From a virus (Duplodnaviria; Heunggongvirae; Uroviricota; Caudoviricetes): a stretch of 64,000 nucleotides of DNA. The translations under genes and the position numbers were made by a program. The stretch lies in IMG/VR virus record IMGVR_UViG_3300021475_000005, one strand, 5' to 3'. The notes beneath the pieces are model-generated. The model ran no database searches, had not been told where the DNA came from, and was given only the letters and a program-made list of their open reading frames with translations. Positions 9,254 through 43,922 of this stretch are shown one piece after another (the first letter of the stretch is position 1; the number at the start of each line of letters is the position of its first letter).

Positions 9254-10303
9254 ATGCCAAAGCCATACAAGCTAGCCGTCCTTATTGGACGCTTTCAGCC
9301 TTTCCATCGCGGGCACGAGCAGGTCATGCTTGATGCATTATCCAATGCTGACCGGCTTCTTGTGATGGTTGGATCGTCTAACCTTTCGCGCACTACGCGT
9401 AATCCGTTCTCCTATGAAGAACGTGAGAGTATGATCATGCAAGCCATGTGTGATAAAGGCGTCGAAGGGCAAGTCGAAATCATTCCTCTTTCAGACAATC
9501 CGTATGAACTTCAAAGCTGGATAACATCCGTTCAAAACCACATAAAATCGTTGTTCCCTTTTGGCAACGATAAAGATGTCGCAATCACCGGCCATGAACG
9601 CGACCAGTCGAGTTTCTATTTGAAGCAGTTTCCGCAATGGGGATTTATTCAGCCTAAAATTCATTCGTTGCATATCAATGCAACGGAAATCCGCGAAGTC
9701 TATTTTGGCAGCGAAGGATGGTTCGATATGCTCGCCAAGAACTGGCTGCCAAAATCTTCGCTCGAATTTCTAATCGAATTCACTCGCGGACATCATTTCA
9801 AAGATATTTGTGCCGAGAAGACATTCGAAGTCGAATATCGTAAGAGATGGGGTAAAGGTCCATTCCAGACTGTCGATCCTGTTGTGATTCAGTCCGGGCA
9901 CCTCCTAACTGTGATCAGAAAGGATGCCCCGGGCAAAGGAATGCTTGCCTTGCCGGGTGGTCACGTAGAATACGGTGAGACCTGTGACGCTGCTGTGATC
10001 CGCGAACTCTTCGAAGAAACCCGCATTCATTTTCATGTCAAAAATAAAGACCTTCGTGTCCAACGAATTTGGCAAGGCTTTCGTGGGCGTCGCCGGTTCG
10101 ACGATCCGGCGCGGTCGTGCAGGGCGCATGTCATCACAGAAGCATTCCTCTTCAAGCTTCCGGATTATGACGAATTTCCATCCGTCCTTGGGGCTGATGA
10201 TGCCGAGATCGCGATGTGGACGCCACTCAGCGAGCTACGGTCACACAACATGTTCGAGGATCATTTCTGGATAGTTCAGAAGATGATTTCGACGTATCTA
10301 TGA
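9254..10303 (+). CDS. natV: bifunctional nicotinamide mononucleotide adenylyltransferase / Nudix ADP-ribose pyrophosphatase (NatV-like)
   Basis: The N-terminus has the GRFQPFHRGH nucleotidyltransferase motif of NadM-type NMNAT. The C-terminus has a Nudix box (GGHVEYGETCDAAVIRELFEETRI). Confidence 0.8.
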   Translation: MPKPYKLAVLIGRFQPFHRGHEQVMLDALSNADRLLVMVGSSNLSRTTRNPFSYEERESMIMQAMCDKGVEGQVEIIPLSDNPYELQSWITSVQNHIKSLFPFGNDKDVAITGHERDQSSFYLKQFPQWGFIQPKIHSLHINATEIREVYFGSEGWFDMLAKNWLPKSSLEFLIEFTRGHHFKDICAEKTFEVEYRKRWGKGPFQTVDPVVIQSGHLLTVIRKDAPGKGMLALPGGHVEYGETCDAAVIRELFEETRIHFHVKNKDLRVQRIWQGFRGRRRFDDPARSCRAHVITEAFLFKLPDYDEFPSVLGADDAEIAMWTPLSELRSHNMFEDHFWIVQKMISTYL

Positions 10304-10313
10304 AGGAAGTTTT

Positions 10314-11738
10314 ATGAGCCTGCCCACCTATCTTAAGCCACAACCGTACAATTCGATCATCGACGCGGATAGTTATAAAGTGCCTCATTGGATGTTCTAT
10401 CGTGAGGGCATCAAAAGCGTCTACAGCTTTATCGAGTCGCGTGGCGGCGAGCATGACACGATCATGATGGCAGGTCTTCAACCTCTTCTTTACGAAAAAA
10501 TTGCTCAACCCGTGCAAGATTGGGAGATCGAGGAGGCAGGAGAATTCTTCGCGAAGCATTTTGGCTTTCCCTCTTATTTCAACAAGAATATGTGGGATGA
10601 GATCGTCAATAAATGGGATAGAAAGCTTCCTCTCGAAATCCGTGCACTGCCTGAAGGTCTCCTCGTTCCCAAGCATACACCGATGGTTACCGTACAGAAC
10701 CATGGCGGGAAGGTTCTTGCGCCATTAACGAGCTACAAAGAGACCATGCTGATGCGGAATGTTTGGCCCGCATGCTCTATCGCGACTCGCGTCTTTCGTA
10801 TGAAGCAGCGTCTCAAGCCGTTTTACGACGAAACAAGCGATAACCCGATTTCGCCTTTTGCAGTTCTTGACTTCTCATCGCGCGGAGTTTTCGGCGACGA
10901 TCATTCCAAGATTGCAGGCGCAGTATTTTGCTTCATGTTTCAAGGTTCCGATAACATGCTCGGAATCCGTCATGCAAATTATTACTATTTCCACGAAATG
11001 TCGGCATTTTCTGTGGCGGCGACCGAACACAGTATTGCAAGCGGATGGGTGCACGACGACGACGGCTACATCGACAACTGTCTCGAAAAAGCGCTGCCTA
11101 ATTCCATCCTTTCGATGGTCGGTGACACTTGGAATATCTTCGAGTTCGCCAAGAAGCTCTGCCGGGGGGATCGGCAAGCGATCATAGCAAACAAAAATCT
11201 CAGTATCGTCGGGCGTCCAGATTCCGGAGAACGCTATGACGTGTTGCCACAATTTCTTGCGACTTTGTATCAAGGTGTCGGCGCACGCAAAAATTCTAAG
11301 GGCTACGACGTATTGAACTTGAACATGAAAGCTCTCTGGGCCGATGGGATGAATGAGGACACCATTACAGAGCCAAATCAGATCGCGAAGGATATGAAAA
11401 TCGCAGCGGACTGTGTGTTGACAGGTGCTGGTGGTGGAATTGCTGCCGCAAAACTGGACCGCGATACCGACCGATGGGCTATGAAAGCTTCCACATATTT
11501 GATGGAAGACGGCTCACAGATGGAGATTTTCAAAGACCCAATCACCGATCCGGGTAAAAAATCCAAGCGTGGGAGATTTACTGTTCGTCCAGATGGGTAT
11601 GGACACACGCTAGTCGGACGCAGATTTGGTGATACCGAATTCGCCGATGATCTCCTCGGTATCCGTTACCTAAACGGCGACGTTCTCAACGCAGCGATTT
11701 TGGAGGACATTCGCAGGCTTGTGGACTCTCAACTATGA
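10314..11738 (+). CDS. nadV: nicotinamide phosphoribosyltransferase (Nampt/NadV)
   Basis: 474-aa ORF. It contains DSYKVPHW, LEIRALPEGLLVPKHTPMVTVQN, NSKGYDVL and FKDPITDPGKKSKRGRFTV, which parallel conserved Nampt blocks. Confidence 0.85.
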   Translation: MSLPTYLKPQPYNSIIDADSYKVPHWMFYREGIKSVYSFIESRGGEHDTIMMAGLQPLLYEKIAQPVQDWEIEEAGEFFAKHFGFPSYFNKNMWDEIVNKWDRKLPLEIRALPEGLLVPKHTPMVTVQNHGGKVLAPLTSYKETMLMRNVWPACSIATRVFRMKQRLKPFYDETSDNPISPFAVLDFSSRGVFGDDHSKIAGAVFCFMFQGSDNMLGIRHANYYYFHEMSAFSVAATEHSIASGWVHDDDGYIDNCLEKALPNSILSMVGDTWNIFEFAKKLCRGDRQAIIANKNLSIVGRPDSGERYDVLPQFLATLYQGVGARKNSKGYDVLNLNMKALWADGMNEDTITEPNQIAKDMKIAADCVLTGAGGGIAAAKLDRDTDRWAMKASTYLMEDGSQMEIFKDPITDPGKKSKRGRFTVRPDGYGHTLVGRRFGDTEFADDLLGIRYLNGDVLNAAILEDIRRLVDSQL

Positions 11739-19006: not shown

Positions 19007-21706
19007 TTAACCTTGACACGCTAGACAGTCATCTGCCTGCTTACCGCTACCATCCTCGACAACAAAATTTTCCGCCATTGTCATGCGTTCAACTTTCTTA
19101 TTCGTATTCTCCGCACGTGACGGCGTCGTCGATCTCAGATAATAAAGAGACTTCACACCCATTTCCCACGCTTTGTAGTGTGCCTTAGTGATCTCTTTTG
19201 CGTCGGCATTATGCTCGAAGAACAAATTCAGCGATTGTGCCTGACAGATATATGGCGCGCGGTCTGCTGCCAACTGAACAAGAGCCATCTGATCCAATTC
19301 GGTCGCCGTCTTGAAGATTACCTTTATATCGTCAGGAATGTCGAGATGCTGAACCGAACCTTCATTGGCGACGATACTCTGCCACGTTGCGTCATTGTCC
19401 AGATCGAGCTTCTGAAGGGCTTTTGACAGATATGGGTTCTTTACCGGGAACGATCCTGACAATGTTTTGTGTAGGAAAGCATTAGCACGGTGAGGCTCGA
19501 TTGAGGGTGATGTTCCTCCGCACAGGATCGAAGAAGAAGCATTTGGGGCCACAGCGAGTTTATGCGCAAATCGTTCCCCTGTACCCTCCATATCCGGTGC
19601 TTCGCCGCGTTCTTCGCCGAGTTTCAGTGAGATGCGGTTTGCTTCGGCACGAAGATAAGTAAAGAGATCGAGGTTTAATAATCTGGCCTGTGGAGATTCA
19701 AGGGAAAATCCTTTTGCCTGCAAATAAGATTGAAAGCCGAGCACACCAAGGCCAACAGAGCGCTCCCGCATGGCACTATAAACTGCATTATGCAATTCTG
19801 GAGGCGCATCCGAGATGAAAGCGTTCAACGCGTTATCGAGCATGCGGAACAGGTCCTCAAGAAACTGAGGATCGTAACGCCATTCATCGAACTTTTCCGC
19901 ATTCACGCTCGACAAGCAGCAGACCGCAGTACGCATCTTGTCGAATTTATCCACACCGGTCGGAAGCGTGATCTCGGTGCAATTCCCGGTGATATAGCCA
20001 TTGAAAGTAAGGCGACCGGTTTTTGGCTCCGTTGCGCAATAGGTTTCGAGACGAAATGGAAGAGGTTGCACATCGCATACAACCGCATGGTGAATTGGGC
20101 TTGGATGAATTCCGTCTACAAGTGCGTCGAAATCTTCCTGTGTCAATGTCAGGGCGTTCATCGTATCTGTCAAACGAATCACCGGTGACAAACCAAGTTC
20201 CAGTGCGATCAGGCGAATTCCTCGAATCAAATCCACATCATTCGACCCAATGCAGAGCAATTCGGCATCGCTATCATCGAGACGCATTTTTGTGCCGGAG
20301 GCCATGATAATTCCACGAAGCCATTCGCGGCGTTCACTGACAGACCATGTAAGCGGTAAACGTCCCGCTGGAATATCCCGTGGTTCATATCGAATCATCA
20401 TTCCAGCTTCGTCCTGTTCCGAATTTACGGAGGCCGTCAGAAGCTGCTTTAATTCGGAGTCGGGAAGAGCGGCTGGAGCATAAACTGCCAAACGGTTACT
20501 GTCTTCGAAACCTGCAAATGTCGCCCACCCAGCCGTGAACGCAATTGCCATGGCATGATGGGGGTCTTCGTCAAGTTGGAATTTCTTCCATTCATTCGCA
20601 ATACCGGTGCGTGCTCCCCAAAGAGTGCTGCCATTTTCCAGTTCTCCGGCCTGCACAATGGTCCCATCGAAGAGATGAAATTTATGTTGCGGAGTGCAGT
20701 CAACATAATCGCCATCTTCAAACCAGACACGGACAAGCTCAGCTTCATCCGCTGTTTTGCGGATCGTGACTGGAACAAAGTCATCACCATTCCAGATATC
20801 GACTGTCTGATCGACAAGACCCTCGATAGGTAAATGGCCTATGCGAGTCAGCATTTGTGTATAAGGTGCAACGCAGAGATTCGATTGATGGACTTTTAGA
20901 CCAAGCTTTTTCTGCGGCTCTGGAAGAGAACGATTGATAGTGTCGATGAAGACCATATAAGGCTCGCCAGTCTGCATGCGAGTCTCGATAAGAAGCCGCC
21001 ATAAATCACGTGCACGCACAGTTTTGGTGACGGTCCCATCCTTTGGAGAGCGTAGATTGAAAGTGGTATTGTTTGTAACGGCTTCCATGAATTCGTCTGT
21101 GATGTTGACCGCGTTATGGAGATTGGTAGCCTTTCGGTTTTGATCGCCGCCAGTCGGTTTGCGCATCGTAATGAATTCTTCGATCTCTGGATGTGAGATA
21201 TCGAGATATGCCGCGTAACTTCCTCGACGAGTACCACCTTGTGAGACAGAAAGGATAATTCGGTCAACAGCGGCAACGAAGGGAATCATGCCGGTAGATT
21301 TGGAGCCTTTCGCAGTCTCCTTACCAGCTTCACGCAGAAATCCCCAATAGCCTCCCACGCCGCCTCCAACTGATGAGAGCCAGCCAGTTTCCGTCCAGTG
21401 ATCGAAAATACCTGATCGGCTGTCGGACACGGCACTCAAAAAGCACGAGATGGGAAGACCGCGTTCAGAACCACCGTTCGAAAGGATAGGTGTTGCATAC
21501 ATGAACCACAACTTCGAAACAGCTTCATAAAGCCGTTGTGCATGATCCTCGTCATCTGCATAGGCAGCCGACGCACGCGCGAATGCATGCTGTGGAGAAG
21601 TCTCTCCCGGCAGCATGTAGCGCTCGATTAGTGTCTGTTTAGTGAAGTCGTTTAGAAGGCTGTCGCGGGAGAGATCAATTTTAATAGATGAGGGACTAAC
21701 AGCCAT
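19007..21706 (-). CDS. nrdA: ribonucleotide reductase class I large subunit NrdA, interrupted by an intein in the catalytic SNLC|TEI site
   Basis: Motifs present: GLPISCFL, GGGVGGYWG, QGGTRRGSYAAYL, a C-terminal YY pair and CLACQG. The catalytic QSNL and CTEITLPT segments are separated by 298 aa. Confidence 0.85.
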   Translation of the reverse strand: MAVSPSSIKIDLSRDSLLNDFTKQTLIERYMLPGETSPQHAFARASAAYADDEDHAQRLYEAVSKLWFMYATPILSNGGSERGLPISCFLSAVSDSRSGIFDHWTETGWLSSVGGGVGGYWGFLREAGKETAKGSKSTGMIPFVAAVDRIILSVSQGGTRRGSYAAYLDISHPEIEEFITMRKPTGGDQNRKATNLHNAVNITDEFMEAVTNNTTFNLRSPKDGTVTKTVRARDLWRLLIETRMQTGEPYMVFIDTINRSLPEPQKKLGLKVHQSNLCVAPYTQMLTRIGHLPIEGLVDQTVDIWNGDDFVPVTIRKTADEAELVRVWFEDGDYVDCTPQHKFHLFDGTIVQAGELENGSTLWGARTGIANEWKKFQLDEDPHHAMAIAFTAGWATFAGFEDSNRLAVYAPAALPDSELKQLLTASVNSEQDEAGMMIRYEPRDIPAGRLPLTWSVSERREWLRGIIMASGTKMRLDDSDAELLCIGSNDVDLIRGIRLIALELGLSPVIRLTDTMNALTLTQEDFDALVDGIHPSPIHHAVVCDVQPLPFRLETYCATEPKTGRLTFNGYITGNCTEITLPTGVDKFDKMRTAVCCLSSVNAEKFDEWRYDPQFLEDLFRMLDNALNAFISDAPPELHNAVYSAMRERSVGLGVLGFQSYLQAKGFSLESPQARLLNLDLFTYLRAEANRISLKLGEERGEAPDMEGTGERFAHKLAVAPNASSSILCGGTSPSIEPHRANAFLHKTLSGSFPVKNPYLSKALQKLDLDNDATWQSIVANEGSVQHLDIPDDIKVIFKTATELDQMALVQLAADRAPYICQAQSLNLFFEHNADAKEITKAHYKAWEMGVKSLYYLRSTTPSRAENTNKKVERMTMAENFVVEDGSGKQADDCLACQG
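19982..20875 (-). mobile_element. intein (298 aa) within nrdA
   Basis: The insert starts with Cys (CVAPY...), contains a block-B-like TPQHKF, ends ...FNGYITGN and is followed by Cys+1. Removing it restores the conserved SNLCTEITLPT. Codon boundaries were checked on the reverse strand. Confidence 0.7.
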
Positions 21707-27095: not shown

Positions 27096-28274
27096 TTACT
27101 CATCTTCATCTGATCGCCTCGCACCTTTCTCTGAAACGTTGAGACGATCATAACCTTCACCTTCGCGTTGATATGCATCAACATCGATACCGTCAGCGCG
27201 CATGGCCTCGATGTCATAGGTCTTGCGACCTTTGATCCACGAGATGGAGGCCTTAATGCCGTCGTCCGCCGTAATTGCACGTCGAACACCGGTTTCGCGG
27301 AACCATTGCTTAAGCCTCTCGGAGGCTTCCTTTGCTTCCGCTTCGGCAACCTTCTTGGCGTTCGAAGCGGCCCGCTCCGTACGCGCTAGCTGCTCGAATT
27401 CATCTAAAAGCGGGAGTGCAGTGTTCTTCTTGTTAGATTCGCCTGCTTTATCATCGGGAGTAGCATTCTTCGTTGCTCTTGAGCAGGCAACCGTGAACGG
27501 GCAGTACTCGCATCCGCCTTCGATCTTTCCTTCAGGGAAAATTTCGGCGACATTCTTTATACTGAAGACATCGGCAGCGCGTTTCTTTGCGACTTCGAAA
27601 GCCTTCTGGTCGTAGCTGACGATAAAAACATCTATATCATCGAAGAAGCTGGCATCGACATACAGGATCACGGCATAATTCGGTTTGTACATCGTCTTTT
27701 GGCGGATCAAGCCCATTTGAACTTGAACCTGCCCACGATGGACGGCTTTTTCTTCTTTTAAATTGACGCGGGGATCGATGGATTTCACTTCGAATGTGAA
27801 GCAACCGCTGCCGCCGAGAGACGCAATTCCATATTCAGCAAGCGCATCATCCGCAACACCGATTACAAGTCCGTCAGGTGTAGCCGACAGTCTGCCGTCG
27901 ATCAGTGTACGCTGTTTCTTACCACCCCAGACTAGACGCGCTGAGCCGTGTAAGTTCTCCATGAACCAGCGGACAGCAGGCTCGACGAAATGGTTTTCAA
28001 TCAAGTCACCGCGTTGAAGCGCACCCCATTTGTCTTTGTGGTCCGTATCCTTTTCGGTACCATGTTTGCCAAACCATGCCTTGCGCATGCAGCCAAAGAC
28101 TTCAGACGCACCTACGCTCTGGCTGCGATCATGTTTCCAAGTCTTCTGATGTGCCTTAACATATGCATCAAAACCTTTTTCAAAGTTGATGACTGTCGGA
28201 ACGGCAGTATCGGCTTTTACGGATTCTAGGACCTCACTCAAGGAAGAAAATCCTTCGTCAATGATTTCATCCAC
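27096..28274 (-). CDS. PD-(D/E)xK recombination exonuclease, YqaJ / lambda-exo-like
   Basis: Contains SVGASEVFGCM, LSATPDGLV and FEVKS (D...E.K). A downstream Cys cluster (GGCEYCPFTVAC) is also present. Confidence 0.5.
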   Translation of the reverse strand: MDEIIDEGFSSLSEVLESVKADTAVPTVINFEKGFDAYVKAHQKTWKHDRSQSVGASEVFGCMRKAWFGKHGTEKDTDHKDKWGALQRGDLIENHFVEPAVRWFMENLHGSARLVWGGKKQRTLIDGRLSATPDGLVIGVADDALAEYGIASLGGSGCFTFEVKSIDPRVNLKEEKAVHRGQVQVQMGLIRQKTMYKPNYAVILYVDASFFDDIDVFIVSYDQKAFEVAKKRAADVFSIKNVAEIFPEGKIEGGCEYCPFTVACSRATKNATPDDKAGESNKKNTALPLLDEFEQLARTERAASNAKKVAEAEAKEASERLKQWFRETGVRRAITADDGIKASISWIKGRKTYDIEAMRADGIDVDAYQREGEGYDRLNVSEKGARRSDEDE

Positions 28275-28594
28275 ATGACATCACTCAGCATGTAGATGCT
28301 CTTCCCTCGCATTCTTGCCCACGCGATTTCGCGCTTAGTGCTGTCTCCGATGTAACCACCCACATCCAGAACGAAAATCGCATCGCTTTCTTCAATCTTT
28401 GCCAGATGGATCATATCCAGATGAATTTTCTGCTTATCTGTAACCATAAGATTGTCTGTCGGCTTTCCTATGTCAGACGCTTGTCTTCCGAAACACCCAA
28501 GGGAATAAACAAGATGACCTTCGAGTGTTAGAATTTTATTATATTCTTCGAATGCCCCACGAAAGCGCGTGCTGCCACAGAGCGTAATCTTCAT
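28238..28594 (-). CDS. nucleoside 2-deoxyribosyltransferase-like (flavodoxin-fold) protein
   Basis: MKITLCGSTRF together with DVGGYIGDSTKREIAWARMRGKSIY resembles the NDT/Rcl/DUF4406 family pattern. Confidence 0.35.
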   Translation of the reverse strand: MKITLCGSTRFRGAFEEYNKILTLEGHLVYSLGCFGRQASDIGKPTDNLMVTDKQKIHLDMIHLAKIEESDAIFVLDVGGYIGDSTKREIAWARMRGKSIYMLSDVMWMKSLTKDFLP

Positions 28595-29208
28595 TTCAAA
28601 CGTTCCTTGGCCTGTTGTGCCAATTTCTGAAGTTCGTAATAGCATCGCCGGGCTGCAAGTACGTCACTAATGGCTTGGTGCGCTCCATCGAAGGCCTGAC
28701 CATTGAAAAAGAACTTGTGAATTTCCGTGAGATTTGGTTTTTTGTAACCTCCGCGTGATCCCGGAATCTTGCACACGGGCTGCGCAGCAAGCATTGTATC
28801 GAAGATTTGTTTATCCACGAATGGATCGATATTCTCGGCTTGGTGCAGCCGTCGCACTGTTCCGGTGACAATATCGTTGTCGAACCCTTTAATATTTTGG
28901 CCGACGATGGTATCGGCTGCATCGATCAAATCGAGAAAGAGATCGATAGCGGTCGTCTCATCGACGCCTACAAGCATCGCCTTCTCGGGACTGATTCCAT
29001 GAACCTTCTCGGCACCACGCCATGAGTCAATGACGCACTGAGGGGCTTCTGGATGCCGGATAATCACATCGAGACGCATTAGCTCTTTTTGATTATCATC
29101 GTCGAGGACAACGCCAAGCTGAACAATACGCGGCTGATTTGGATGACTAAGCGGCGTGCGTTTATCGCCAAAACCGCTCGTTTCTAAGTCATAAAACAGA
29201 GTAGGCAT
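28591..29208 (-). CDS. DnaQ-like 3'-5' exonuclease (DEDDh)
   Basis: Exo I (FYDLETSGF), Exo II (GQNIKGFDNDIV) and Exo III (HQAISDVLAA) are all present. Confidence 0.75.
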   Translation of the reverse strand: MPTLFYDLETSGFGDKRTPLSHPNQPRIVQLGVVLDDDNQKELMRLDVIIRHPEAPQCVIDSWRGAEKVHGISPEKAMLVGVDETTAIDLFLDLIDAADTIVGQNIKGFDNDIVTGTVRRLHQAENIDPFVDKQIFDTMLAAQPVCKIPGSRGGYKKPNLTEIHKFFFNGQAFDGAHQAISDVLAARRCYYELQKLAQQAKERLK

Positions 29209-29577
29209 TTAATTGAGTTTTCCCTTCTGCCCGGTTGAGATGGTTTCGACGGACAGAGAACCATTCTGTTCTTGTAGATCGGAGATAAATTTTCCAATGG
29301 CCTGTTGATTTGCACTATTGGCCTGAAGGCTGATCAAAGATTGTGTAACCATCTCATGATCCTTCAAAGTCGTCATAAATGTGTGAAACAACATAACACC
29401 GACAAATAGAAGCGCCATATAACCGGCAATCCAGAGTGGATGAGCAATTGCAAGCGAGACGATCCACACCACTCCCGAGATAAAGGCAAAAAGTCCAAGA
29501 CGGGCTCGAAAAGCTTTTACATTGAGATGGGCTTCGTGAAGCGCCGGGATCGTTGTTTTAGAATCATCAATCATCAT
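29209..29577 (-). CDS. hypothetical membrane protein
   Basis: Two transmembrane segments (LGLFAFISGVVWIVSLAI; IAGYMALLFVGVMLF). Confidence 0.4.
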   Translation of the reverse strand: MMIDDSKTTIPALHEAHLNVKAFRARLGLFAFISGVVWIVSLAIAHPLWIAGYMALLFVGVMLFHTFMTTLKDHEMVTQSLISLQANSANQQAIGKFISDLQEQNGSLSVETISTGQKGKLN

Positions 29578-29618
29578 GGGAGTGTTGTGTTACCTTTCTC
29601 GACTCGATCTGTCAAGGT

Positions 29619-30125
29619 TCAAGACACTTGTTTGCGGAGATTTTTTATAGGAACAATGCCATTATGGATGAGAATTTCGGAACGAATATCCATCCAGAGA
29701 TTACCTAATGTGTTTTTCCCATTATGATCTTCTCCCCATCCCCAGAAATCATCACGCCAGCTATCTTCAATCAGCGCGCGCTCACCGGTTTCGAGAAGCT
29801 TTTTCAGAACGTAGGGATGCTGAGCAACCTTTTCATATAGGATATCTCTCATCACTCCCACTTTGATTTCGTCCCAGTCAGGACGATAGAGTGCTTTGTA
29901 CGCGTTGGCGACTTTGAAAGCATTGTGCGCCGATGTCGCGTAACGAATTTCGTCTTGGATCGTCGGAGACTCTGGAAACTTCTCCCAGTGGTATGCTGCT
30001 TCGGATGTGTCAAAGCGATATCCTTTCCATAGAAGTGCAAATGACGAGAAGTTCGATAGAGGGTAAAATTCCTGCTCGTAGAAAAGAACTTGCGTATCGG
30101 TGTCAAGCTTGTAGTTCACAGCCAT
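29619..30125 (-). CDS. NADAR (YbiA-like) domain protein, copy 1
   Basis: Contains FYEQEFYPLSNFS, FDTSEAAYHWEKF and GWGED..NGKNTLGNLWMDIR. This is the YbiA/NADAR pattern. Confidence 0.7.
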   Translation of the reverse strand: MAVNYKLDTDTQVLFYEQEFYPLSNFSSFALLWKGYRFDTSEAAYHWEKFPESPTIQDEIRYATSAHNAFKVANAYKALYRPDWDEIKVGVMRDILYEKVAQHPYVLKKLLETGERALIEDSWRDDFWGWGEDHNGKNTLGNLWMDIRSEILIHNGIVPIKNLRKQVS

Positions 30126-30132
30126 TGTTTTC

Positions 30133-30672
30133 TTACTCTTCCTGATGTGTTGAAGTGTTCGGGATTTTCAAACGATTCATGATTCTGTCCTTAAGCACCG
30201 CGATATTATCGAGTTTCTCTTCCGCAATCGTAGAACGTTGCCCATAACCATAAGTTTTCAGTACGCTCTCATTTATGAATCTTTCTTTTGTTATCCAGCC
30301 TAGAAAACGCAGCCGTGTTGGGTTGATGATCTGAATTCCAACAGCAATGGATGCCTTAAGATCGACGATACTATTGAAGAACAGGTCAACCTTCTTGCCG
30401 GTGAACGTACGAGTTTTTACCTGAATGGAACCCAGAGGCGATTGCATATCTTCCCCTTCGTCTGGACCGGGTAAAATGCGGTTGTCAATCTCTAGTCCCA
30501 GATATTTAGCGACCGCGAATTCTCCCATCGCTCCAACGTAATGCAGCCCAAATTCCGTAAAATCATCACTATGTTTAAGCGAATGATTTCTGGTTGCCTC
30601 TCTCGCAGCGCTTCGATGGGAAGCGACCAGATTTATGTGAGCAACGGAGAAAGAATCGAGATCGAAAATCAT
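30133..30672 (-). CDS. hypothetical protein, possible PD-(D/E)xK nuclease fold
   Basis: GAMGEFAVAKYLG ... PGPDEGED ... IQVKT loosely resembles a restriction-endonuclease-like core. Confidence 0.25.
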   Translation of the reverse strand: MIFDLDSFSVAHINLVASHRSAAREATRNHSLKHSDDFTEFGLHYVGAMGEFAVAKYLGLEIDNRILPGPDEGEDMQSPLGSIQVKTRTFTGKKVDLFFNSIVDLKASIAVGIQIINPTRLRFLGWITKERFINESVLKTYGYGQRSTIAEEKLDNIAVLKDRIMNRLKIPNTSTHQEE

Positions 30673-30700
30673 CTTGTAAGCTTTCAGTTAGTACGACTTG

Positions 30701-31087
30701 TTAAGCGACAATCTTTCGTCCATTCGTCAGCGTGATAAATCGTTTATCAGACGGAATGTACTCACGCCATTTCTTCAGCCATGGTCCGCGCAACGTGAAC
30801 GCCCATGTATCGCCTTCACTCACGACCTTATGAAAAGTGTCTCGTGTCGTGATAATTGGGATTAAGCTGGGGCGATAAGTTTTGACTGTGCCATCGAGTT
30901 CATGCTCGACGAGCTTGCCTTTGAAAATCCACGAGATCGCATTAAAGGCGTGCGTGTGATAGGCGTCTCTCGAACCATCTTCAAAATGCAAGAAGACGAT
31001 GGAGAACAAGCGTTTCAATTCGAGGACGAATAGGCCTGTCGTATGAGATTCAGGTCCACCATCCTTGGCGACTTTGAAGAGTTTCAT
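30701..31087 (-). CDS. hypothetical protein
   Basis: The ORF is taken from the internal Met (MKLFKV), which has a GGAA-type ribosome-binding site. Confidence 0.35.
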   Translation of the reverse strand: MKLFKVAKDGGPESHTTGLFVLELKRLFSIVFLHFEDGSRDAYHTHAFNAISWIFKGKLVEHELDGTVKTYRPSLIPIITTRDTFHKVVSEGDTWAFTLRGPWLKKWREYIPSDKRFITLTNGRKIVA

Positions 31088-31098
31088 TTGGTTCCTTT

Positions 31099-33420
31099 TT
31101 AATGTGTTTCCGACCAACGCATACCGAACTTCACGTCGATATCGACCGGCGCTCTAAAGTTCAGACGAATGCCTGCTTCGACCGCAGCCTCTTTCACATT
31201 GCGTTCGCAGATTGCTAAGATTCTTGGATCGTCACGAACGGCGATCTGCAATTCGTCGTGAATCCATGCCAGCACAGCAAAATCACCATCCCATCCATGC
31301 ACGAGACCTTCGTCTTCACAAAACTGCTCGAAATAGACGCACCAAAGTTTCGCTACCGTTGCCGCTGCGCCTTGAAGCTTCGTATTCAAAACGGCGTGCT
31401 GAGAGCGCACGAAGAGATGACGGCCATCCAAAGCTTCGACATAGCCGCGCTTAGCGTCACGCTGCGAAGCTTTAACGACTGCACCGAAAGCTGGAATTCG
31501 CGTCATGAGACGACGACGCATTTCTGCGCCAAGCGCCTTGGCTTTCGACGGATACATTGCGAGTGTGGGGTCGCAGGTAATACCAAGTTTATAATCTTGT
31601 GCGCCATAGATCATGGCATAGATCGCCGTCTTTGCCGTATCGCGTGAATCCAATTCCATAACTGCTTGGTGCAGATCGTGAGGATCGGATTCGACCACGA
31701 GTTTCAGATATTCGCCGTTATCAAATTCCGACATATAATGACCAAGTGCGCGAAGCTCGATGCCTTTCTGGTCGGCACCCATCAGCTTCCAGCCCTCCGG
31801 CACATAGAAGAGATTACGAAAATCCCATCCGTGATCTCCAGCGCGTCCTTTTAGCAGCGTCTTCTTTAGTTTGATTTTACCAGCGTCATCACGCTTATAA
31901 TCGCGTGCTTCATTATCGTATTCTGGGCGACCTACAAATTGTTTTCCATCCGGATCGAGAAGCGGTTTCAAACATTCACGATCCAGATATTTCACACCAT
32001 CTTCGTTTGCTTTCCAAATTCCGTAAATAATTTTGCCGTGATCGAATGAGTACGCGACATCTGGCTGTTCCCATTGAAGTAGGTTCTTGAAAACAACGCG
32101 GGGAACCTGAGCAATATTGGGATTAGAATGAGATGCGCGGTTAGTAACTGTTCCACCGCAATTCGTACGTGCATGGATTTTGTTGTCGCCGCGTTCTAAT
32201 GCTTTTCCAATGAGCCCGTTCTTGCCATCGACGAGTTGTCCGAGACGTTTTTTGAAATAGAAAATCTCGGCGAGAACGTCGCAAATCTCAACAGTCTTTG
32301 CGAGATCGCGCAGAACGTCGTCGTCAACCTTGGCTTGACCTTTCTCGGTAAATTCTTGAGGCTCCCAGCCATAGATTTTCTCAAGGCGATTAACGATTTG
32401 TTGTCTGGAGTTAGGATTGAACTCGATAAGTTTGACAGGTGTGAAAGGACATCCGGCTTCAGTATCGCCTTTCATGATCTCTTTGAATTTGGTGGTCTTC
32501 TTGGGGATTTGAACTTCGCCCCAATGCTGACGCGTATCATCCTCACCAAAATCTGCGCGTGGACGATAGTTTGGGAGATTCTTCTCAGACTCTTTCGTCG
32601 CCGGATTATAGTAAGTGGTGGAGACTCCGGTCTTCAACCATTTCTTCGGAACCCACCATGATCCGAAATGTTCTATAGCAGTCTTCGACATACGCTCGTG
32701 ACTTTCGCGCATGTCTTCTTCTAATTTCTGTGCAAGTGGGATATCGAGCGGAAATCCATTATCCTGCGTTCGCTCCATTAGATCATGGATGGAATGCTCA
32801 AGTTTCGTCGCGAATTCAGACCAAGGACGCTCTTCAACCTTTTGCCAAAGTGCATATGTAACTTCGACATCTCGGATGGCGTATTCCTCCATCTCGCGAT
32901 TCCATTCGCCCCAGACGAATTTGGCGATTTCTGCTTTATCGGTGATGCCTAAAGCTTTAGCTTCGGTTTCTTTCACATCCTTGTAGTCGCCTTTTGGGAA
33001 ACCCAGACGCTGTCCCCATGCAGCCAATTCATGTGAACCAATGTATTCACCATCGAGTTGCTGACGTTTCCATAGACGGAAATCTCTTTCCTTGGCGTCT
33101 GCAAAGAGCATGCGCGTCATAACCATCGAATCGCGTACGATGCCTTTGGGCTGATAACGGTCGCCGTAGACCTTCCAAAGCGCCTTCTGATCGAAGCCAA
33201 CCCAGTTGTGTCCGACAATGAGAGCCGCATTATTGAGACGCTCTATGCCTTCTAGGATTGTGTTTTCACGATTATTGTGACGATACACATAATTCTCGCC
33301 GGTATCGATGTCCTTAGCGACGAGGATGTGAATCTTCGTAAGTTGCTGGAGAAGCCCGTTTGTTTCTAGGTCTGCAATGAGACGTTGATTGGATGGGGCC
33401 GAATCGGCTGTGTTGAGCAT
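31099..33420 (-). CDS. DNA polymerase, family A (T7-like), with 3'-5' exonuclease domain
   Basis: N-terminal exonuclease motif IADLETNGL. Polymerase motif B RDTAKTAIYAMIYG and motif C AWIHDELQ. Confidence 0.85.
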   Translation of the reverse strand: MLNTADSAPSNQRLIADLETNGLLQQLTKIHILVAKDIDTGENYVYRHNNRENTILEGIERLNNAALIVGHNWVGFDQKALWKVYGDRYQPKGIVRDSMVMTRMLFADAKERDFRLWKRQQLDGEYIGSHELAAWGQRLGFPKGDYKDVKETEAKALGITDKAEIAKFVWGEWNREMEEYAIRDVEVTYALWQKVEERPWSEFATKLEHSIHDLMERTQDNGFPLDIPLAQKLEEDMRESHERMSKTAIEHFGSWWVPKKWLKTGVSTTYYNPATKESEKNLPNYRPRADFGEDDTRQHWGEVQIPKKTTKFKEIMKGDTEAGCPFTPVKLIEFNPNSRQQIVNRLEKIYGWEPQEFTEKGQAKVDDDVLRDLAKTVEICDVLAEIFYFKKRLGQLVDGKNGLIGKALERGDNKIHARTNCGGTVTNRASHSNPNIAQVPRVVFKNLLQWEQPDVAYSFDHGKIIYGIWKANEDGVKYLDRECLKPLLDPDGKQFVGRPEYDNEARDYKRDDAGKIKLKKTLLKGRAGDHGWDFRNLFYVPEGWKLMGADQKGIELRALGHYMSEFDNGEYLKLVVESDPHDLHQAVMELDSRDTAKTAIYAMIYGAQDYKLGITCDPTLAMYPSKAKALGAEMRRRLMTRIPAFGAVVKASQRDAKRGYVEALDGRHLFVRSQHAVLNTKLQGAAATVAKLWCVYFEQFCEDEGLVHGWDGDFAVLAWIHDELQIAVRDDPRILAICERNVKEAAVEAGIRLNFRAPVDIDVKFGMRWSETH

Positions 33421-33462
33421 TGAGGCCGATCTAATATATGTCGGTGTTCAGGTCAAGTGGTG

Positions 33463-34185
33463 TCAGTAAATGCGATCTCTCGCATACGCTGATTCATCCG
33501 CTTTAGGGCCAGTCTTCCATCCGTTCCCACTGATCACTTCACGAAAACCACTCTGACGTAAGTCGGGATTTGGCTGGAAAGGAAGAGCGTTGCCCATATT
33601 CGCTCGTGCCCATCCTGCAAGTTCTTCTGAAATAGCTTCAAAGGAGGTATGAAAATCCTCAAGAAGTTTTTCAGTTTCATGAATAAGATTGCCAGCGCGC
33701 GTAAGAAGTTCAGGCGGAAGCTGGGGCATGACCTTAAGGTCTTCTTTAAGTAACTGCTCCCCTGCAACACCTACTAACTGATGCTTCGATTCAGGTGGCG
33801 GATTAACAGGTTTAAGTACAAAGCATTGATCGATAACTTCGTCGATCAATCTACAAAGTGGATGACTAGCACGAACTTCCTCATCTTTTTCGTTGAGATA
33901 GACGTATTGTTTCTCGATTGTGAGAAATTCATCTCCATTGAAAAATAATTTTCCAAGCTTACCAGTTTTAAGCTTGATGCCGATACTGTCTATTTCATTT
34001 TTGAAATAGGAACTATTTTCCCAATGTATATTAGTTGTGAGGACGTGGATTTTCTGTAAAGTATCGGCTGTCTCGTATCCGATACCAATTTGAATGCTGT
34101 TTCCACCGGTATGCGCGGTATAGAAAAATAGATCGTAAAGATTAGTACTGACAAAGTTCTCGCGAGCATATGTAATTTTTCGCAT
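33463..34185 (-). CDS. hypothetical protein encoded by an AT-rich gene
   Basis: About 240-aa ORF with a GGAAGTG ribosome-binding site. GC is about 40%, versus about 50% for its neighbours. Confidence 0.45.
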   Translation of the reverse strand: MRKITYARENFVSTNLYDLFFYTAHTGGNSIQIGIGYETADTLQKIHVLTTNIHWENSSYFKNEIDSIGIKLKTGKLGKLFFNGDEFLTIEKQYVYLNEKDEEVRASHPLCRLIDEVIDQCFVLKPVNPPPESKHQLVGVAGEQLLKEDLKVMPQLPPELLTRAGNLIHETEKLLEDFHTSFEAISEELAGWARANMGNALPFQPNPDLRQSGFREVISGNGWKTGPKADESAYARDRIY

Positions 34186-34195
34186 TTTCACTTCC

Positions 34196-35941
34196 TTACA
34201 GAGGAACACAAAACTTGGAACCAACGCACGTGATCAACGTGCGCTTACCGCTAGCATACTGTGCAACAAGCGTCGGTGACCATCCGGTAGGGCCATGATT
34301 ATAACCTTGTTCCATCAAGCACGACATTCCGCCTGCATAGAGACCGTTTAAGATCGCTGGAGAATGAACATGTCCAATCGTCATTTTCGAGGCGACCTTC
34401 GAGAGAGAAGCAACACCTCCTCGTGCGCCGTTGATCCCTCGGTGACCATGGTTGGAATGCTCTACGCCCCCGATATTCACATCGTCTTTGTCTTCACGCA
34501 GAAATTTGATTTTCGAACAGTCCCATTCCGTCAATTCGTTGACCGCGTGATGGAAGATTCGATAATTGCCATCGCCATTCTTAAGAGCGCGATAGGTCGC
34601 AGTTTGTAGTTCAAGAAAGAAGAGGGCATTGACGGGATCATACTTATAATCACCGGTCTTTAGCCATTTCCCGAGCGCCTGATCGTGATTGGAATCGACG
34701 ACATAGAATTGGGTGTCAGGATAACGATCCGCCAGCGTCGCCATAAACATCGCTGCTTCACTGACCTCACCCTCTACCGATTCTCGCCCCATAATATGGA
34801 GGCGATATCTATCATGGGGATCGAAAATGTTATGATGATTGCGTGCGCGGAAGTCGAGAATATCGTGAAGAAATAGATTTTCTGGTTTCAAGATATCCAG
34901 CATGGACGAATGAGTTGTATCCGTTCTCCACACTCGCGGTTCGATGCCTCCGGTCATCTTCTCATCAGTAGGGAAGACCCCAAAGATGGCATGGGCAAGT
35001 TGCGGATCGACACCCGCACAATGCACGTCGCCCGGTGTTAGTACAGAAAGGCGATTTCCCTGTGAGACTTGTCCATTCTCAACTTTACGGTCGAGATCGT
35101 AAAACGTGCCTTTGTCGTCTGCGATTAAGTGACGACAGAAGAAGTCCCCATCTTTATCGACCTCGACGAGTACTGCACCATAGATATGATGGAAGGATGC
35201 CTTAATACCGGCTTTCTTCATGATGTAATTAGATTTGGTTACCGCACCTGTCGTCATGATCTGCTTGGGCGGTAAATGCGGAAGCCGCGCAACTGAGACG
35301 AGTTGGACCTTGGCGTGGGGAAAGACGCCCCAGCGATCATTTGTATAGGTATCGAAATCCGACAGAGGCTTTGTCGCAGTTGGCAGCGTATTCATCTCAC
35401 CGCAGAAATCGATCTTGTCGGCGATGCGCATCCGGTCGGAGACGATATAGGGCTTGATACGATCAGGCCATACAACGGATGTCTTCGCATGATCCTCAAA
35501 AAGAGATTTACCATATGTGAAACCTCCAATCATAATTTCACAGGAACCGTAGTTCTTGAGGAATGTGCAGTAAGCTTCGAGATTGGTCAGGAATTGTTCG
35601 TGGAGGGCGGTGGAGTCCTGTGCAGATGAGAGAATAAAGCGGCGCACGCCTTTCTTCATTCCAATATTTTTAGCAACTGGTGCAGGACGATGACTGAAAC
35701 GAAGCTTATAAAGACGATCCTGTAAGGTCGTGCGGGGAATGCCATGCTCACGAGCAAAGGCTCGCTGTCCTCCGGCTTTCTTGACGAGTTTGAGAAGTTC
35801 GGCAGGCGCTATAGTCTGGATATCAATTGGATCATTTTGCATAAACAAGTTCCGGTCTGGCGTGAGGGGCAAGATATGCCTTTGTGAAATTCCATATAAA
35901 CCAAGAATACGGGAAACGCGGGGCTCCGTCTGAGCCTGCAA
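34196..35941 (-). CDS. calcineurin-like metallophosphoesterase with N-terminal HTH region
   Basis: Phosphoesterase motifs: GDVHCAG, DSNHD and GHVHSP. The N-terminus contains an HTH-like segment (GIPRTTLQDRLYKL). Confidence 0.55.
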   Translation of the reverse strand: MQAQTEPRVSRILGLYGISQRHILPLTPDRNLFMQNDPIDIQTIAPAELLKLVKKAGGQRAFAREHGIPRTTLQDRLYKLRFSHRPAPVAKNIGMKKGVRRFILSSAQDSTALHEQFLTNLEAYCTFLKNYGSCEIMIGGFTYGKSLFEDHAKTSVVWPDRIKPYIVSDRMRIADKIDFCGEMNTLPTATKPLSDFDTYTNDRWGVFPHAKVQLVSVARLPHLPPKQIMTTGAVTKSNYIMKKAGIKASFHHIYGAVLVEVDKDGDFFCRHLIADDKGTFYDLDRKVENGQVSQGNRLSVLTPGDVHCAGVDPQLAHAIFGVFPTDEKMTGGIEPRVWRTDTTHSSMLDILKPENLFLHDILDFRARNHHNIFDPHDRYRLHIMGRESVEGEVSEAAMFMATLADRYPDTQFYVVDSNHDQALGKWLKTGDYKYDPVNALFFLELQTATYRALKNGDGNYRIFHHAVNELTEWDCSKIKFLREDKDDVNIGGVEHSNHGHRGINGARGGVASLSKVASKMTIGHVHSPAILNGLYAGGMSCLMEQGYNHGPTGWSPTLVAQYASGKRTLITCVGSKFCVPL

Positions 35942-36557
35942 TCCAGCGTGGTCTATGGCGCAGAGTGATTTTCATAGTAAAGGCGGGATGGTCGAAGAGA
36001 TCGGAGCGGCTCTTTGCGCAGTCCCACTCATGGCGACACAGAAATGCAACAAGGCCTTTTTGTTCTTCCATCAATTTCAATGCATGGCGAGCAGCCTTCT
36101 CCGCATCTTTTCCATATGGTGGATTTGTAATAATCGCGTCTGGAGTAAAACCTTTTAAAGCCGTAACCCAATCCAGCGTAGTCGCATCATTCCATGTCGC
36201 GTTATCAGGATCGGGATGAGCAGCACGCCACGCATTATAACGTTCGGTCGCTTCAGCTTGCGTGACGAACTGGAAGAAATCGAACAGACCGTCCGGATCG
36301 AATCCCGGATAGGCTTTAATATCTGTCGAGACAAGGTTGCGTGCATCTCCCATACGTTTGGAAATGGCACCGTCGCCGCAGAACGGCTCCCATACTTGAT
36401 ATGACGGCAGATCGTCGGCGATGACTTCGAAAAGAGAGTCGATGGCAGAATCTGGGGTCGGGTAAAAATCTAAGGGAACACGCTCATATGCAGATGTTCC
36501 CATCATTGAGGGGTCTTTTCGACCCGAGTCGCTTAGGGGCATGGCCGGAATGTACAT
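35832..36557 (-). CDS. DNA N6-adenine (or N4-cytosine) methyltransferase, NPPY class. Orphan; I see no adjacent endonuclease candidate.
   Basis: Motif I (VWEPFCGDGA) and motif IV (ITNPPYGK). Confidence 0.65.
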   Translation of the reverse strand: MYIPAMPLSDSGRKDPSMMGTSAYERVPLDFYPTPDSAIDSLFEVIADDLPSYQVWEPFCGDGAISKRMGDARNLVSTDIKAYPGFDPDGLFDFFQFVTQAEATERYNAWRAAHPDPDNATWNDATTLDWVTALKGFTPDAIITNPPYGKDAEKAARHALKLMEEQKGLVAFLCRHEWDCAKSRSDLFDHPAFTMKITLRHRPRWIAGSDGAPRFPYSWFIWNFTKAYLAPHARPELVYAK

Positions 36558-36853
36558 TTGTAGGTGGCCGCGTCAAGGATTCCAGCATTATCGGTCGGAA
36601 TCCCTGACTCATATATTTCCTTGACATTTCCATATCAGTTTGATCTAGTTCATTGATGCCCCATGTTTCCCCAGCTTGGCTTTTCGCTTACGCAATGTTC
36701 GCGCTGATTGAAACCTGCGAGACGCAAAATCGAAAATTCTTTGATAACTGGCGGGCGCTCGCGAGGTTGCTGCCTTATTGAAGGCCTCGCAAGTTTCATC
36801 TTGCGGGGACTGACTTCTTTCGATACCTTTCCATCTTCTGTCCTGATGCCAGA

Positions 36854-37105
36854 GTGACTATGGGGACGCCTGCAAAGCGTTTCAGGCCGGTTAAAATCCG
36901 GCTCAGGACTCCATTCAAGGCCAATCCCATGAGCAAAGTAGGCAAACGCCTTATTGCCTCTTTACAGGAGGCGAAAGCCTTTGCTCAGGGCAAGCTTGCC
37001 CTTTCCGTTACAACTTTTACACCCAACAAGGATGGTTCCGTAACACGCCAGACACGGGTTGCAACCAGACAGGAGATCGAAGATGACGCAACAGACATGG
37101 GTTGA
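36854..37105 (+). CDS. hypothetical protein
   Basis: 83-aa ORF at the start of a plus-strand block. Confidence 0.3.
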   Translation: MTMGTPAKRFRPVKIRLRTPFKANPMSKVGKRLIASLQEAKAFAQGKLALSVTTFTPNKDGSVTRQTRVATRQEIEDDATDMG

Positions 37106-38168
37106 GCTTTACGCAGCGCACGATCCCGGCACCACGAATACTGAGATGACTTCTACCGATGCCTCGGTTCAGGCGTGGAACGAAAGCTATAGGCTGACCT
37201 CCTATACCAATATGTGGCATGCCACGAAGGACAACAGCTATCTCGATAAGGCTGTCTATAATATCGATGCGATCTTTGCAGCGGCTGCAAAGAATACCGA
37301 CACTCTTCTCCCCGGATGGGGATGGACAAGCGCCAATTACAGCACCAATAAGGTGCCATATTCATACATCGTCAGCGATGGTATGATCCTGACGGCGATT
37401 GCCGAGTATGTCCGCTGTGTCCTGACGAACCAGCCGTTACTGCAATCCTATAAAGCGAAAGCCGACTACTATCTTGGTATCCTGATCAGCAAATTCGCCA
37501 GTCGCTGGGATTTTTGCTATCAGACCGAACGTGCGGCACTGCTCGATTTCACCGATGATATCGGCTTTTTCGTGATGGCGAAGTGGTGTACTGGATATGC
37601 AGGTCTGCCGCCCGGCATCTCGCTGCCATTCAATCAATCGAATGCTTTTGCGCGATTCCTGCTGAAGCTTTACGCCGTCACGGGAAACAACGATTATCTG
37701 ACGAAAGCAGTTCAGATCGCCAATACGATGAAATTTAAAGCCCTCAAGCCGACAGCCGGTGGCGTCTTGTGGAACTTCGCAGCCGATCTGCTTTCGACGG
37801 ATGGTACACGTTATATGCCGGTCAGCGACGTTTCGCATTCCAATGTCGATGCATCCTTCATTCTCGAAATGTACGAACATGGAAACGTGTTCACGCAAAC
37901 GACAATCGACGAGATCAAATATCAGCTTTTAAACGTGATTTGGGACAAGACGAAGAATGTCTCGCACGTCTTCATGGATGGAACTGATCAGGATTCGACG
38001 ATTGAAATCGATAACTTGACTGGGTACGCTTTGTTCGGCGCTGATCCGGCAGTCGCAGCGGCTATCTGGTCGATGATGAGTAATCCCGCATCGAAATGCA
38101 ATGGACCTATGATGGCGCTCACAATTGCCAATCTGGCGATGTCGAGCAAAACGGCTGGTCCGACATGA
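37059..38168 (+). CDS. hypothetical protein (the likely start is the internal Met at about 37083)
   Basis: 369-aa ORF rich in aromatic residues and Asn. I recognise no confident motif. Confidence 0.45.
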   Translation: MQPDRRSKMTQQTWVELYAAHDPGTTNTEMTSTDASVQAWNESYRLTSYTNMWHATKDNSYLDKAVYNIDAIFAAAAKNTDTLLPGWGWTSANYSTNKVPYSYIVSDGMILTAIAEYVRCVLTNQPLLQSYKAKADYYLGILISKFASRWDFCYQTERAALLDFTDDIGFFVMAKWCTGYAGLPPGISLPFNQSNAFARFLLKLYAVTGNNDYLTKAVQIANTMKFKALKPTAGGVLWNFAADLLSTDGTRYMPVSDVSHSNVDASFILEMYEHGNVFTQTTIDEIKYQLLNVIWDKTKNVSHVFMDGTDQDSTIEIDNLTGYALFGADPAVAAAIWSMMSNPASKCNGPMMALTIANLAMSSKTAGPT

Positions 38169-38347
38169 CGGCTAAGCAACGTATTTGGCATATCATCGGA
38201 TTTATCTTCGGTGTGTTAATCAAAGTAGATGGAAAAACGGTTGGACGCTATAAGCGTGAGCCGGATTATGTCTACGGTTCAGATGGCACCACTGTCCAAG
38301 GTATTCGGTCGGCAACCCTTGAACCATTCTGGGAACGTCGATCTTGA
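38165..38347 (+). CDS. hypothetical small protein
   Basis: ATGA overlap with the upstream stop. 60 aa with an N-terminal hydrophobic segment. Confidence 0.3.
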   Translation: MTAKQRIWHIIGFIFGVLIKVDGKTVGRYKREPDYVYGSDGTTVQGIRSATLEPFWERRS

Positions 38348-38576
38348 CATCGGCATAACGAGTCCATATATACGACATAATATCGATTCGCTCCGCTGGC
38401 TGACTGGTAAAGCAGCGATCTCTAAAATCGCCTATGTCGGTTCAAACCCGACGCGGGGCACCAATGAAAGTTGTACAATGTTTCCGGAACACGACGATTA
38501 GCTAGTCCACGTACGAGGACCGCCTGTCCTGTTGTCAAAACATTCGTAATGACAACAATCTAATAGGACAGAAAAT

Positions 38577-39490: not shown

Positions 39491-39496
39491 CGACAG

Positions 39497-40594: not shown

Positions 40595-40595
40595 T

Positions 40596-43403: not shown

Positions 43404-43922
43404 CTAAAGGCTCATAGCCAAGGGATTGTCCATGTGACTTTTCCCCTTTTCTAATTTCTGCGCAAACAGTCGCAAGGCTGTGAGCCGGGATGTAAATTCC
43501 TCCTCTGTCAAAACAGTATGTTCTGGATCGTTCGAACCGATAGAGTGGCGCAAGATGCTGTCTCTACTATCCACCAACGCTTTCCTAAAACGCGTAACCT
43601 GATGGAAAAGTGCAGTGTAAGCTCGGTTGAGAAGAAGCTGATACTCTTGCGATTCGCGGGGCATTTCTACCCCATTCCACCAGACGACTTGCAGCCCCTT
43701 CCAGACAAGGTTCATTTGCCTACCGCGCTTTTTGGCAATTATCCCTTCGAGCCCGCAGACTTTTTTCTGGACCTCTGGATCGGAAAATTTGAAAGCTTGG
43801 ATCAATCCTTCCATGCTCGCGCAGAAGACATTATCGAACACAAAATAATGTGGAGCGAAGTTTGATAGCTCGCAACTTGGATAGGGATGATCGGAATGGA
43901 TATCGAGAATTCTAGGCATCAA
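43404..43922 (-). CDS. NADAR (YbiA-like) domain protein, copy 2
   Basis: YPSCELSNFAPHYFVFDNVFCASMEGLIQAFKF matches the NADAR N-terminal signature and is distinct from copy 1. Confidence 0.6.
   Translation of the reverse strand: MMPRILDIHSDHPYPSCELSNFAPHYFVFDNVFCASMEGLIQAFKFSDPEVQKKVCGLEGIIAKKRGRQMNLVWKGLQVVWWNGVEMPRESQEYQLLLNRAYTALFHQVTRFRKALVDSRDSILRHSIGSNDPEHTVLTEEEFTSRLTALRLFAQKLEKGKSHMDNPLAMSL

Follow-up and report, generated by a model that had tools for sequence, protein, structure and literature searches.

NADAR proteins of phages have recently been recognised as orphan antitoxin-like counter-defences against DarTG1. The T4 protein gp30.3, renamed AdfN (anti-DarT factor NADAR), is necessary and sufficient for the resistance of T-even phages to DarTG1; the RB69 homologue is shorter by 15 residues at its C-terminus and is associated with sensitivity to DarTG1, and the T4 enzyme is apparently tuned to hydroxymethylated T-even DNA (PMC11257639). 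Two further clades of stand-alone phage NADARs, independently co-opted, also counter DarTG1, namely Bas32 (T5-like) and Bas60 (Vequintavirinae), and T-even phages stack several anti-DarTG factors, AdfA together with AdfN (PMC11257639). All NADAR types, YbiA and T4 gp30.3 included, hydrolyse G-ADPr on DNA in vitro, while neither E. coli YbiA nor the T4 NADAR rescued uninfected cells from DarT1 toxicity (PMC11125620). Moreover, guanosine-ADPr on RNA is also reversed by NADARs (PMC11833690), and among the four NADAR families the NADAR and YbiA types also act on C-ADPr, which DarG1 and the T4 NADAR do not remove (PMC12945103). YbiA, which is located in the DNA-damage operon dinG-ybiB (PMC11125620), has in addition a riboflavin-intermediate N-glycosidase activity (cited in PMC11543638). 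The catalytic position follows a family rule: YbiA has Glu, DarG1 (the NADARs associated with DarT1) has Asp, and the phage NADARs have His (PMC11543638). That NADARs reverse guanine ADP-ribosylation by DarT-type toxins, as a first-pass annotation of the DNA studied here had stated, is documented for DarT1 in the same work.

The window analysed here, a stretch of 64,000 nucleotides, comes from a soil/freshwater phage of approximately 206 kb related to Caulobacter phage phiCbK; an ENA contig of 206,491 bp carries the same proteins, which also occur in two further samples. As the first-pass annotation had described, the window holds two open reading frames of interest, both on the minus strand, here called P1 and P2 (Table 1).

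Table 1. Position and main attributes of the NADAR genes, the accessory block and the NAD genes in the 64,000-nucleotide window.
Feature	Coordinates	Strand	Remarks
Nmnat (cytidylyltransferase-like)-Nudix fusion, NatV-like NARP2 half	9254..10303	(+)	PF01467 E 7.7e-11, PF00293 E 5e-13
Nampt (NadV-like nicotinamide phosphoribosyltransferase), other NARP2 half	10314..11738	(+)	PF18127 NAMPT_N E 4.7e-22, PF04095 E 9.5e-17
Lineage-specific accessory block	29209..31117	(-)	Pol I-to-exonuclease slot; 138-aa, 179-aa, P1 and 122-aa ORFs
P1, YbiA-type NADAR	29619..30125	(-)	168 aa, ATG start; predicted base-ADP-ribose / ribosyl N-glycosidase
P2, phage-type NADAR (gp30.3/AdfN family)	43404..43919	(-)	171 aa from ATG

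The ATG of P1 is preceded by a Shine-Dalgarno-like stretch, AGGAAGAG. Its product scored 94 bits against PF08719 (NADAR; E 1.5e-26, cutoff 35.1) and 89.9 bits against TIGR02464 (cutoff 73.7), the NCBIfam model named 'riboflavin biosynthesis intermediates N-glycosidase'; with both scores above the curated cut-offs, P1 is classified by profile as a YbiA-type NADAR, and its PHROG match is phrog_1017. In a phmmer search, the match to E. coli YbiA (2b3w) had an E of 8.6e-16, and that to 8bau, the NADAR of P. nicotianae, an E of 0.0047. The AF2 model of P1 (pLDDT 86) gave the same two structures in a Foldseek search of the PDB, 2b3w at E 4.8e-8 (TM 0.75) and 8bau at E 6.5e-5, and no other significant match. 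P1 thus shares with E. coli YbiA the catalytic Glu of that type as well as the N-terminal beta-strands, but it differs in being phage-encoded, in belonging to a clade whose 60-69% identical relatives lie in phage contexts, and in having surroundings without a riboflavin or LexA context. NADARs of T5-like phages are among the matches of P1 as well, with about 34% identity; in the published tree Bas32 and Bas60 fall outside the YbiA group, with which P1 is placed by its HMM score.

The second gene was listed as an open reading frame from a TTG (43404-43922, 172 aa), the next codon of which is an ATG at 43919. This ATG overlaps the stop of the upstream gene (TGATG) and public gene calls are of 171 aa, so the shorter form was adopted; the residue numbers E38, K45 and H126 used below refer to the 172-aa frame and are lower by one when counted from the ATG. 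Whereas P1 is recovered by PF08719, the family named for both proteins in the first-pass annotation, P2 had no match to it even at E<=1, and was instead recovered by PF08010 (Phage_30_3) with 161.5 bits (E 1.3e-47, cutoff 36); its PHROG match is phrog_652. P2 is 37% identical to T4 gp30.3 over 147 aa (E 2e-28), 52% identical to CcrColossus gp169 (annotation 'similar to T4 30.3-like protein') and 49% identical to the KVP40 30.3 homologue. On these matches, P2 is assigned to the phage NADAR/AdfN (PF08010) family rather than to the PF08719/YbiA-like one. With P2 alone, phmmer against the PDB returned chance matches to Arc2 only, and the P2 family profile reached YbiA at E 0.59 only, so that plain sequence search of the PDB was insufficient and the link from P2 to the NADARs required profile-profile and fold comparison. 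In the latter, the AF2 model of P2 (pLDDT 93.7) matched 2b3w at E 4.8e-6 (TM 0.62); 8bau followed at E 0.02, each of the two matches having a probability of 1.00, and there was no other significant one. PADLOC gave only weak PDC-M42C matches for both P1 and P2, which are uninformative.

P2 and T4 gp30.3 are accordingly alike in Pfam family and in their small, core-only fold, and P2 keeps the Glu/Lys pair as well as the His specific to the family, which lies in KHSI in T4 and in RHSI in P2. The C-terminal helix of P2, modelled with high confidence at residues 140-164, is intact, unlike that of the RB69 homologue. On the other hand, the alignment of the two proteins reaches residue 149 of the 152 in T4, after which P2 runs for about 20 residues further, giving it a longer C-terminal tail; T4 is a myovirus, whereas P2 is carried by a siphovirus relative of phiCbK; and P2 lies by an rIIB block and an SNF2 helicase gene, while the T4 gene lies in the DNA ligase region. 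Finally, the T4 enzyme seems adapted to hmC DNA.

Regarding the relationship between the two proteins, BLASTP of P1 against P2 found nothing (E 0.57), in line with the earlier view that they are not recent duplicates, and a recent duplication was rejected on this basis. The N-terminal NADAR signature that had been read in both holds as a shared motif, but the actual pattern is looser, LSNF-x15-E-x6-KF (LSNFSSFALLWKGYRFDTSEAAYHWEKF in P1, LSNFAPHYFVFDNVFCASMEGLIQAFKF in P2); scanning all six frames of the whole window gave exactly two occurrences, one in P1 and one in P2. When the two family alignments were compared by hhalign, they aligned over their full length (143 columns) with a probability of 86% and E 5e-6. 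Moreover, some members of the P2 family match both PF08719 and PF08010, and several carry 'YbiA (DUF1768 family)' as their JGI name. Together with the Foldseek results and the members with both Pfam matches, the hhalign comparison places PF08010 within the NADAR superfamily, as its phage branch, which is why the absence of a PF08719 match, formally the outcome that the first-pass annotation had named as refuting its reading, is a poor test for P2. Judged from profiles and modelled folds, P1 and P2 are therefore classed as anciently diverged members of different families of that superfamily, and hence not as duplicates of one another. The first-pass description of both genes as NADAR (YbiA-like) stands as far as the superfamily and the YbiA type of P1 are concerned, but P2 belongs with PF08010 and has His in place of the catalytic Glu; the proposed comparison of predicted structures with YbiA/NADAR structures, for its part, led to the same two PDB entries for both models.

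The active-site residues are consistent with this assignment. According to the phmmer alignment, E42, K49, W84, E120, D125 and W128 of P1 correspond to E43, K50, W89, E125, D130 and W133 of 8bau (numbering taken from PMC11543638); none of the six varies among 30 aligned homologues, and the last three fall within LIEDSWRDDFWGWG. By hhalign, E38 and K45 of P2 align with E42 and K49 of P1, and H126 of P2 aligns with E120 of P1 and also with the His of the T4 KHSI motif; the three P2 residues are invariant among 33 homologues, and the DSWRDDFWGWG loop is absent from P2. E43 and K50 of the P. nicotianae NADAR equal E88 and K95 of E. coli C7, and both proteins keep the pair. By sequence, the Glu of P1 and the His of P2 fit the published family rule exactly. 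Both thereby differ from DarG1, the BC4488-family antitoxin of DarTG1, in which the position is Asp, although the superfamily is the same and, by analogy, so presumably is the hydrolysis of guanine-N2-ADPr. DarG1 also has an N-terminal beta1-beta2-alpha1 DNA-binding extension, while P2 has no N-terminal extension, and the DarT1 gene adjoins that of DarG1, whereas scans with Pfam, PHROG, NCBIfam and PADLOC found no ADP-ribosyltransferase (ART) beside P1 or P2. The 179-aa neighbour of P1 (30133-30672) was considered as a possible ART; it looks PD-(D/E)xK-like by eye and matches phrog_18407 only, and as it is not conserved beside P1 homologues this was rejected.

We then compared the genomic setting of the two genes with that in related phages. 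The Pol I of this phage (31099-33420) matches, by tblastn, Caulobacter phage CcrBL10 at 63.6% identity and other Dolichocephalovirinae, and the window is colinear with CcrColossus and CcrBL10 from a thymidylate-synthase-like gene to rIIA; at the DNA level similarity is absent, as megablast of positions 28000-46000 against reference phages gave no match. The slot of P2, between the rIIB block and the SNF2 helicase gene, is that of gp169 in CcrColossus, and is empty in CcrBL10. P1 lies in another slot, between Pol I and a DnaQ-like exonuclease, which holds a single unrelated ORF in each of CcrColossus and CcrBL10 and four here. Of the companions of P1 in this block, the 138-aa ORF is cupin-like and the 122-aa ORF is hydrophobic, with only a weak, sub-threshold ferroportin match; the block has a GC content of 0.44-0.465, slightly below the 0.484-0.50 of the genes on either side. 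A search with the P1 family profile detected no P1-type gene in the 40-42 kb of syntenic DNA of CcrColossus and CcrBL10, and on that ground we regard both NADAR genes as accessory and P1 as the newer gain. Such an accessory position on a conserved backbone is typical of counter-defence genes. We consider it probable that P1 and P2 are of separate origin, each having been acquired into a variable slot of the replication region.

The nearest relatives of P1 (55-69% identity) are found in phage contexts, which weakens a host-derived metabolic origin. Within the group at 64-66% identity, one relative is flanked by Mre11-like and Rad50-like genes, with RuvC and a T4 baseplate gene close by, and another is found within about 5 kb of a Nampt gene, near RNA ligase, HNH and Band_7 genes; the loci with P1 relatives by Mre11-like/Rad50-like genes or about 5 kb from the phage Nampt are L157/L158 (4949-8203) and L159 (1-6480). 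This suggests that the P1 clade is recurrently linked to DNA-repair and NAD genes. In the 148 related viral loci viewed, save for the synteny with CcrColossus/CcrPW, neither P1 nor P2 has a conserved partner gene, and since the neighbours do not recur, a toxin-antitoxin-like or operon-partner arrangement was rejected. These loci were recovered from IMG/VR by an alignment-based scan; a scan with P2 alone returned nothing, the patterns being too specific.

Within the reach of tblastn, 506 of 50,697 reference phage records had P1-type matches and 1,508 had P2-type matches, and no record was seen to carry both. A fused P1+P2 query found 1,861 records and 1,863 places, a census that is approximate, as about 150 weak P1-type matches dropped out with the longer query. 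The two surplus places are explained by same-type pairs, in a megaphage with two P1-like copies and in a record with two P2-like places, and it is from this that the lack of a record with both types follows. Among the 148 IMG/VR loci, viewed with flanks of +-10 kb, one (L141, IMGVR_UViG_3300037454_000906, 253 kb, 9950-12319) carries, about 1.2 kb apart, an AdfN-type gene and a NADAR gene of another family; the product of the latter resembles proteins of Staphylococcus Herelleviridae phages annotated 'NADAR family protein'. With none among the reference records and this one locus, the pairing of an AdfN-type with another NADAR is thus rare, but not unique in kind.

In addition, the same phage carries two NAD genes, which the first-pass annotation had counted, as Nudix and NAD salvage genes, among several independent countermeasures to ADP-ribosylation. 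This part of the proposal does not hold: by their domains, the adjacent Nmnat and Nampt genes (9254-11738) are identified as a complete phage NARP2 pair, and NARP2, a pathway found in about 1.1% of the phages sequenced, counters NAD+-depleting defences by rebuilding NAD+ (bioRxiv 10.1101/2024.02.11.579819), which is not an anti-ADP-ribosylation function. The pair would form a separate counter-defence layer, acting by rebuilding NAD+. In this window it is on the opposite strand to the NADAR genes and 18-32 kb away from them, while NARP2 genes occur within 10 kb of three other NADAR loci. The Vibrio phage KVP40 also carries the Nampt/Nmnat pair (bioRxiv 10.1101/2024.02.11.579819) and, like the phage studied here, combines NARP2 with a homologue of gene 30.3; in contrast, a P1-like YbiA-type NADAR alongside a 30.3 homologue was not detected in any reference phage record.

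From family membership, fold, conserved residues, synteny and the rarity of the pairing, we infer the enzymatic and counter-defence activities of the two proteins. On balance we favour the reading that they are two stand-alone NADAR-superfamily N-glycosidases of different families, with P2 acting as an anti-DarT1 factor and P1 as a second base-ADPr hydrolase. P2 is a strong candidate for the former role, as it belongs by sequence to the T4 gp30.3/AdfN family shown to protect T-even phages from DarTG1 (PMC11257639). It would cut ADP-ribose off the guanine N2 of phage DNA modified by a DarT1-type toxin of the host, using the conserved Glu/Lys pair and the phage-specific His, and so restore replication and transcription. 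For P1 an anti-DarT1 role is not established, considering that E. coli YbiA did not rescue cells from DarT1 (PMC11125620) and that P1 passes TIGR02464. Most likely it is a base-ADPr hydrolase of a different range, and less likely an N-glycosidase of a metabolite or signal; with its complete Glu-Lys-Glu-Asp-Trp site, it may act on different or broader substrates, and a range including cytidine-ADPr would widen protection to other ADP-ribosylating defences or toxin variants. Against the favoured reading we counted the failure of YbiA and the T4 NADAR to rescue from DarT1, the tuning of AdfN to hydroxymethylated DNA, the TIGR02464 score of P1, and the fact that neither gene has a conserved neighbour across the 148 loci that points to a substrate. 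A phage with AdfN-type, YbiA-type and NARP2 genes offers a natural test of the division of labour between NADAR families during infection, and may show if non-enterobacterial hosts defend themselves against phages by more than a single kind of nucleic-acid ADP-ribosylation. What the locus contributes otherwise is an extension of AdfN-type genes to phiCbK-like phages and a correct annotation of known parts.

A more specific form of the same idea, which we put forward tentatively, is that the two enzymes are non-redundant, P2 serving for DarT1-style G-ADPr and P1 for a second base modification beyond the phage-type NADARs, such as C-ADPr or base-ADPr on RNA, laid down by a pierisin/ScARP-like or novel ART defence. 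If this were true, the rare pairing would be a sign that the host population, probably alphaproteobacterial, has a second and so far uncharacterised immunity that ADP-ribosylates nucleic acids.

It is rather unlikely, in our judgement, that P1 and P2 are redundant, both stripping DarT1-type G-ADPr and differing only in the DarT1 variants, DNA contexts or hosts concerned. Representatives of every NADAR family hydrolyse G-ADPr in vitro, three independent phage NADAR clades counter DarTG1, and the layering of AdfA and AdfN in T-even phages would be a parallel. However, the key catalytic position differs between the two (Glu and His), P2 is devoid of the D/W loop, the published C-ADPr specificity of the YbiA type is unlike that of the T4 NADAR, and the two types were never seen together in reference phages, contrary to what routine redundancy would lead one to expect.

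We give little credence to the view that P1 is a metabolite damage-control N-glycosidase like YbiA/COG3236, acting on the reactive ribosylamino-pyrimidine intermediates of riboflavin synthesis or a similar small N-riboside and having no role in defence. Its TIGR02464 score, the JGI name 'ribA/ribD-fused' of homologues and the annotation of some phage homologues with or beside GTP cyclohydrolase II would fit such a function; yet no riboflavin gene was found among the Pfam-scanned ORFs of the window, P1 and its closest relatives are placed among phage replication and repair genes, and YbiA too hydrolyses G-ADPr and C-ADPr. Just as doubtful is the idea that one or both NADARs, together with NARP2, oppose NAD+-based immunity (Thoeris, for instance) by degrading small ADPr-derived immune signals or toxins, as N-glycosidic ADPr conjugates, instead of acting on modified DNA. 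In its favour, Iyer et al. 2022 (PMC9503650) argued on contextual grounds that soluble ADPr derivatives are the main targets of phage NADAR, Macro, SLOG and Nudix domains, and NARP2 is in the same genome; a close P1 relative has a Nampt within about 5 kb, and NARP2 lies near the three other NADAR loci mentioned. However, the published NADAR experiments all concern base-linked ADPr or riboflavin intermediates, none of them signal cleavage, and NARP2 is distant and on the other strand here.

Several other elements of the window were recorded. A 135-aa ORF on the minus strand (28238-28645), between the RecE-like and DnaQ-like exonucleases, resembles by eye a nucleoside 2-deoxyribosyltransferase/DUF4406-like protein, and had no Pfam, PHROG, NCBIfam or PADLOC match. 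In the tRNA region, a 369-aa ORF (37059-38168, plus strand) has a sub-threshold Macro_2 match (E 0.0047, 16.7 bits against a cutoff of 27), which could be a further ADPr-related domain or due to chance. A tRNA with a CUA anticodon (amber suppressor; 38390-38463, plus strand) is labelled 'Pyl' by ARAGORN and scores 57.7 bits with the Rfam tRNA model; tRNA-Cys (36840-36913) and tRNA-Met (40675-40752) lie near it, and the ORFs of the window read normally under code 11. A permuted (two-piece, alphaproteobacterial-type) tmRNA was found at 39458-39819 on the plus strand (RF04321, 86.5 bits, gathering threshold 47; RF01849 alpha_tmRNA, 53.7 bits, gathering threshold 50), for which ARAGORN predicts the tag AEAFRVVQAATGSTTQLDIFA; this phage tmRNA hints at an alphaproteobacterial host. 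Of two HNH_3 homing-endonuclease-like genes on the plus strand, at 5959-6456 and 38951-39478, the second is immediately upstream of the tmRNA. The small subunit of ribonucleotide reductase (17765-19003, minus strand) is fused to a C-terminal glutaredoxin (PF00268 and PF00462) and adjoins the large subunit (19007-21706). Finally, a tyrosine recombinase gene at 55163-55870 on the plus strand (Phage_integrase, E 6.7e-16) matches in position CcrColossus gp182 and CcrBL10 gp133, both annotated as tyrosine recombinases.
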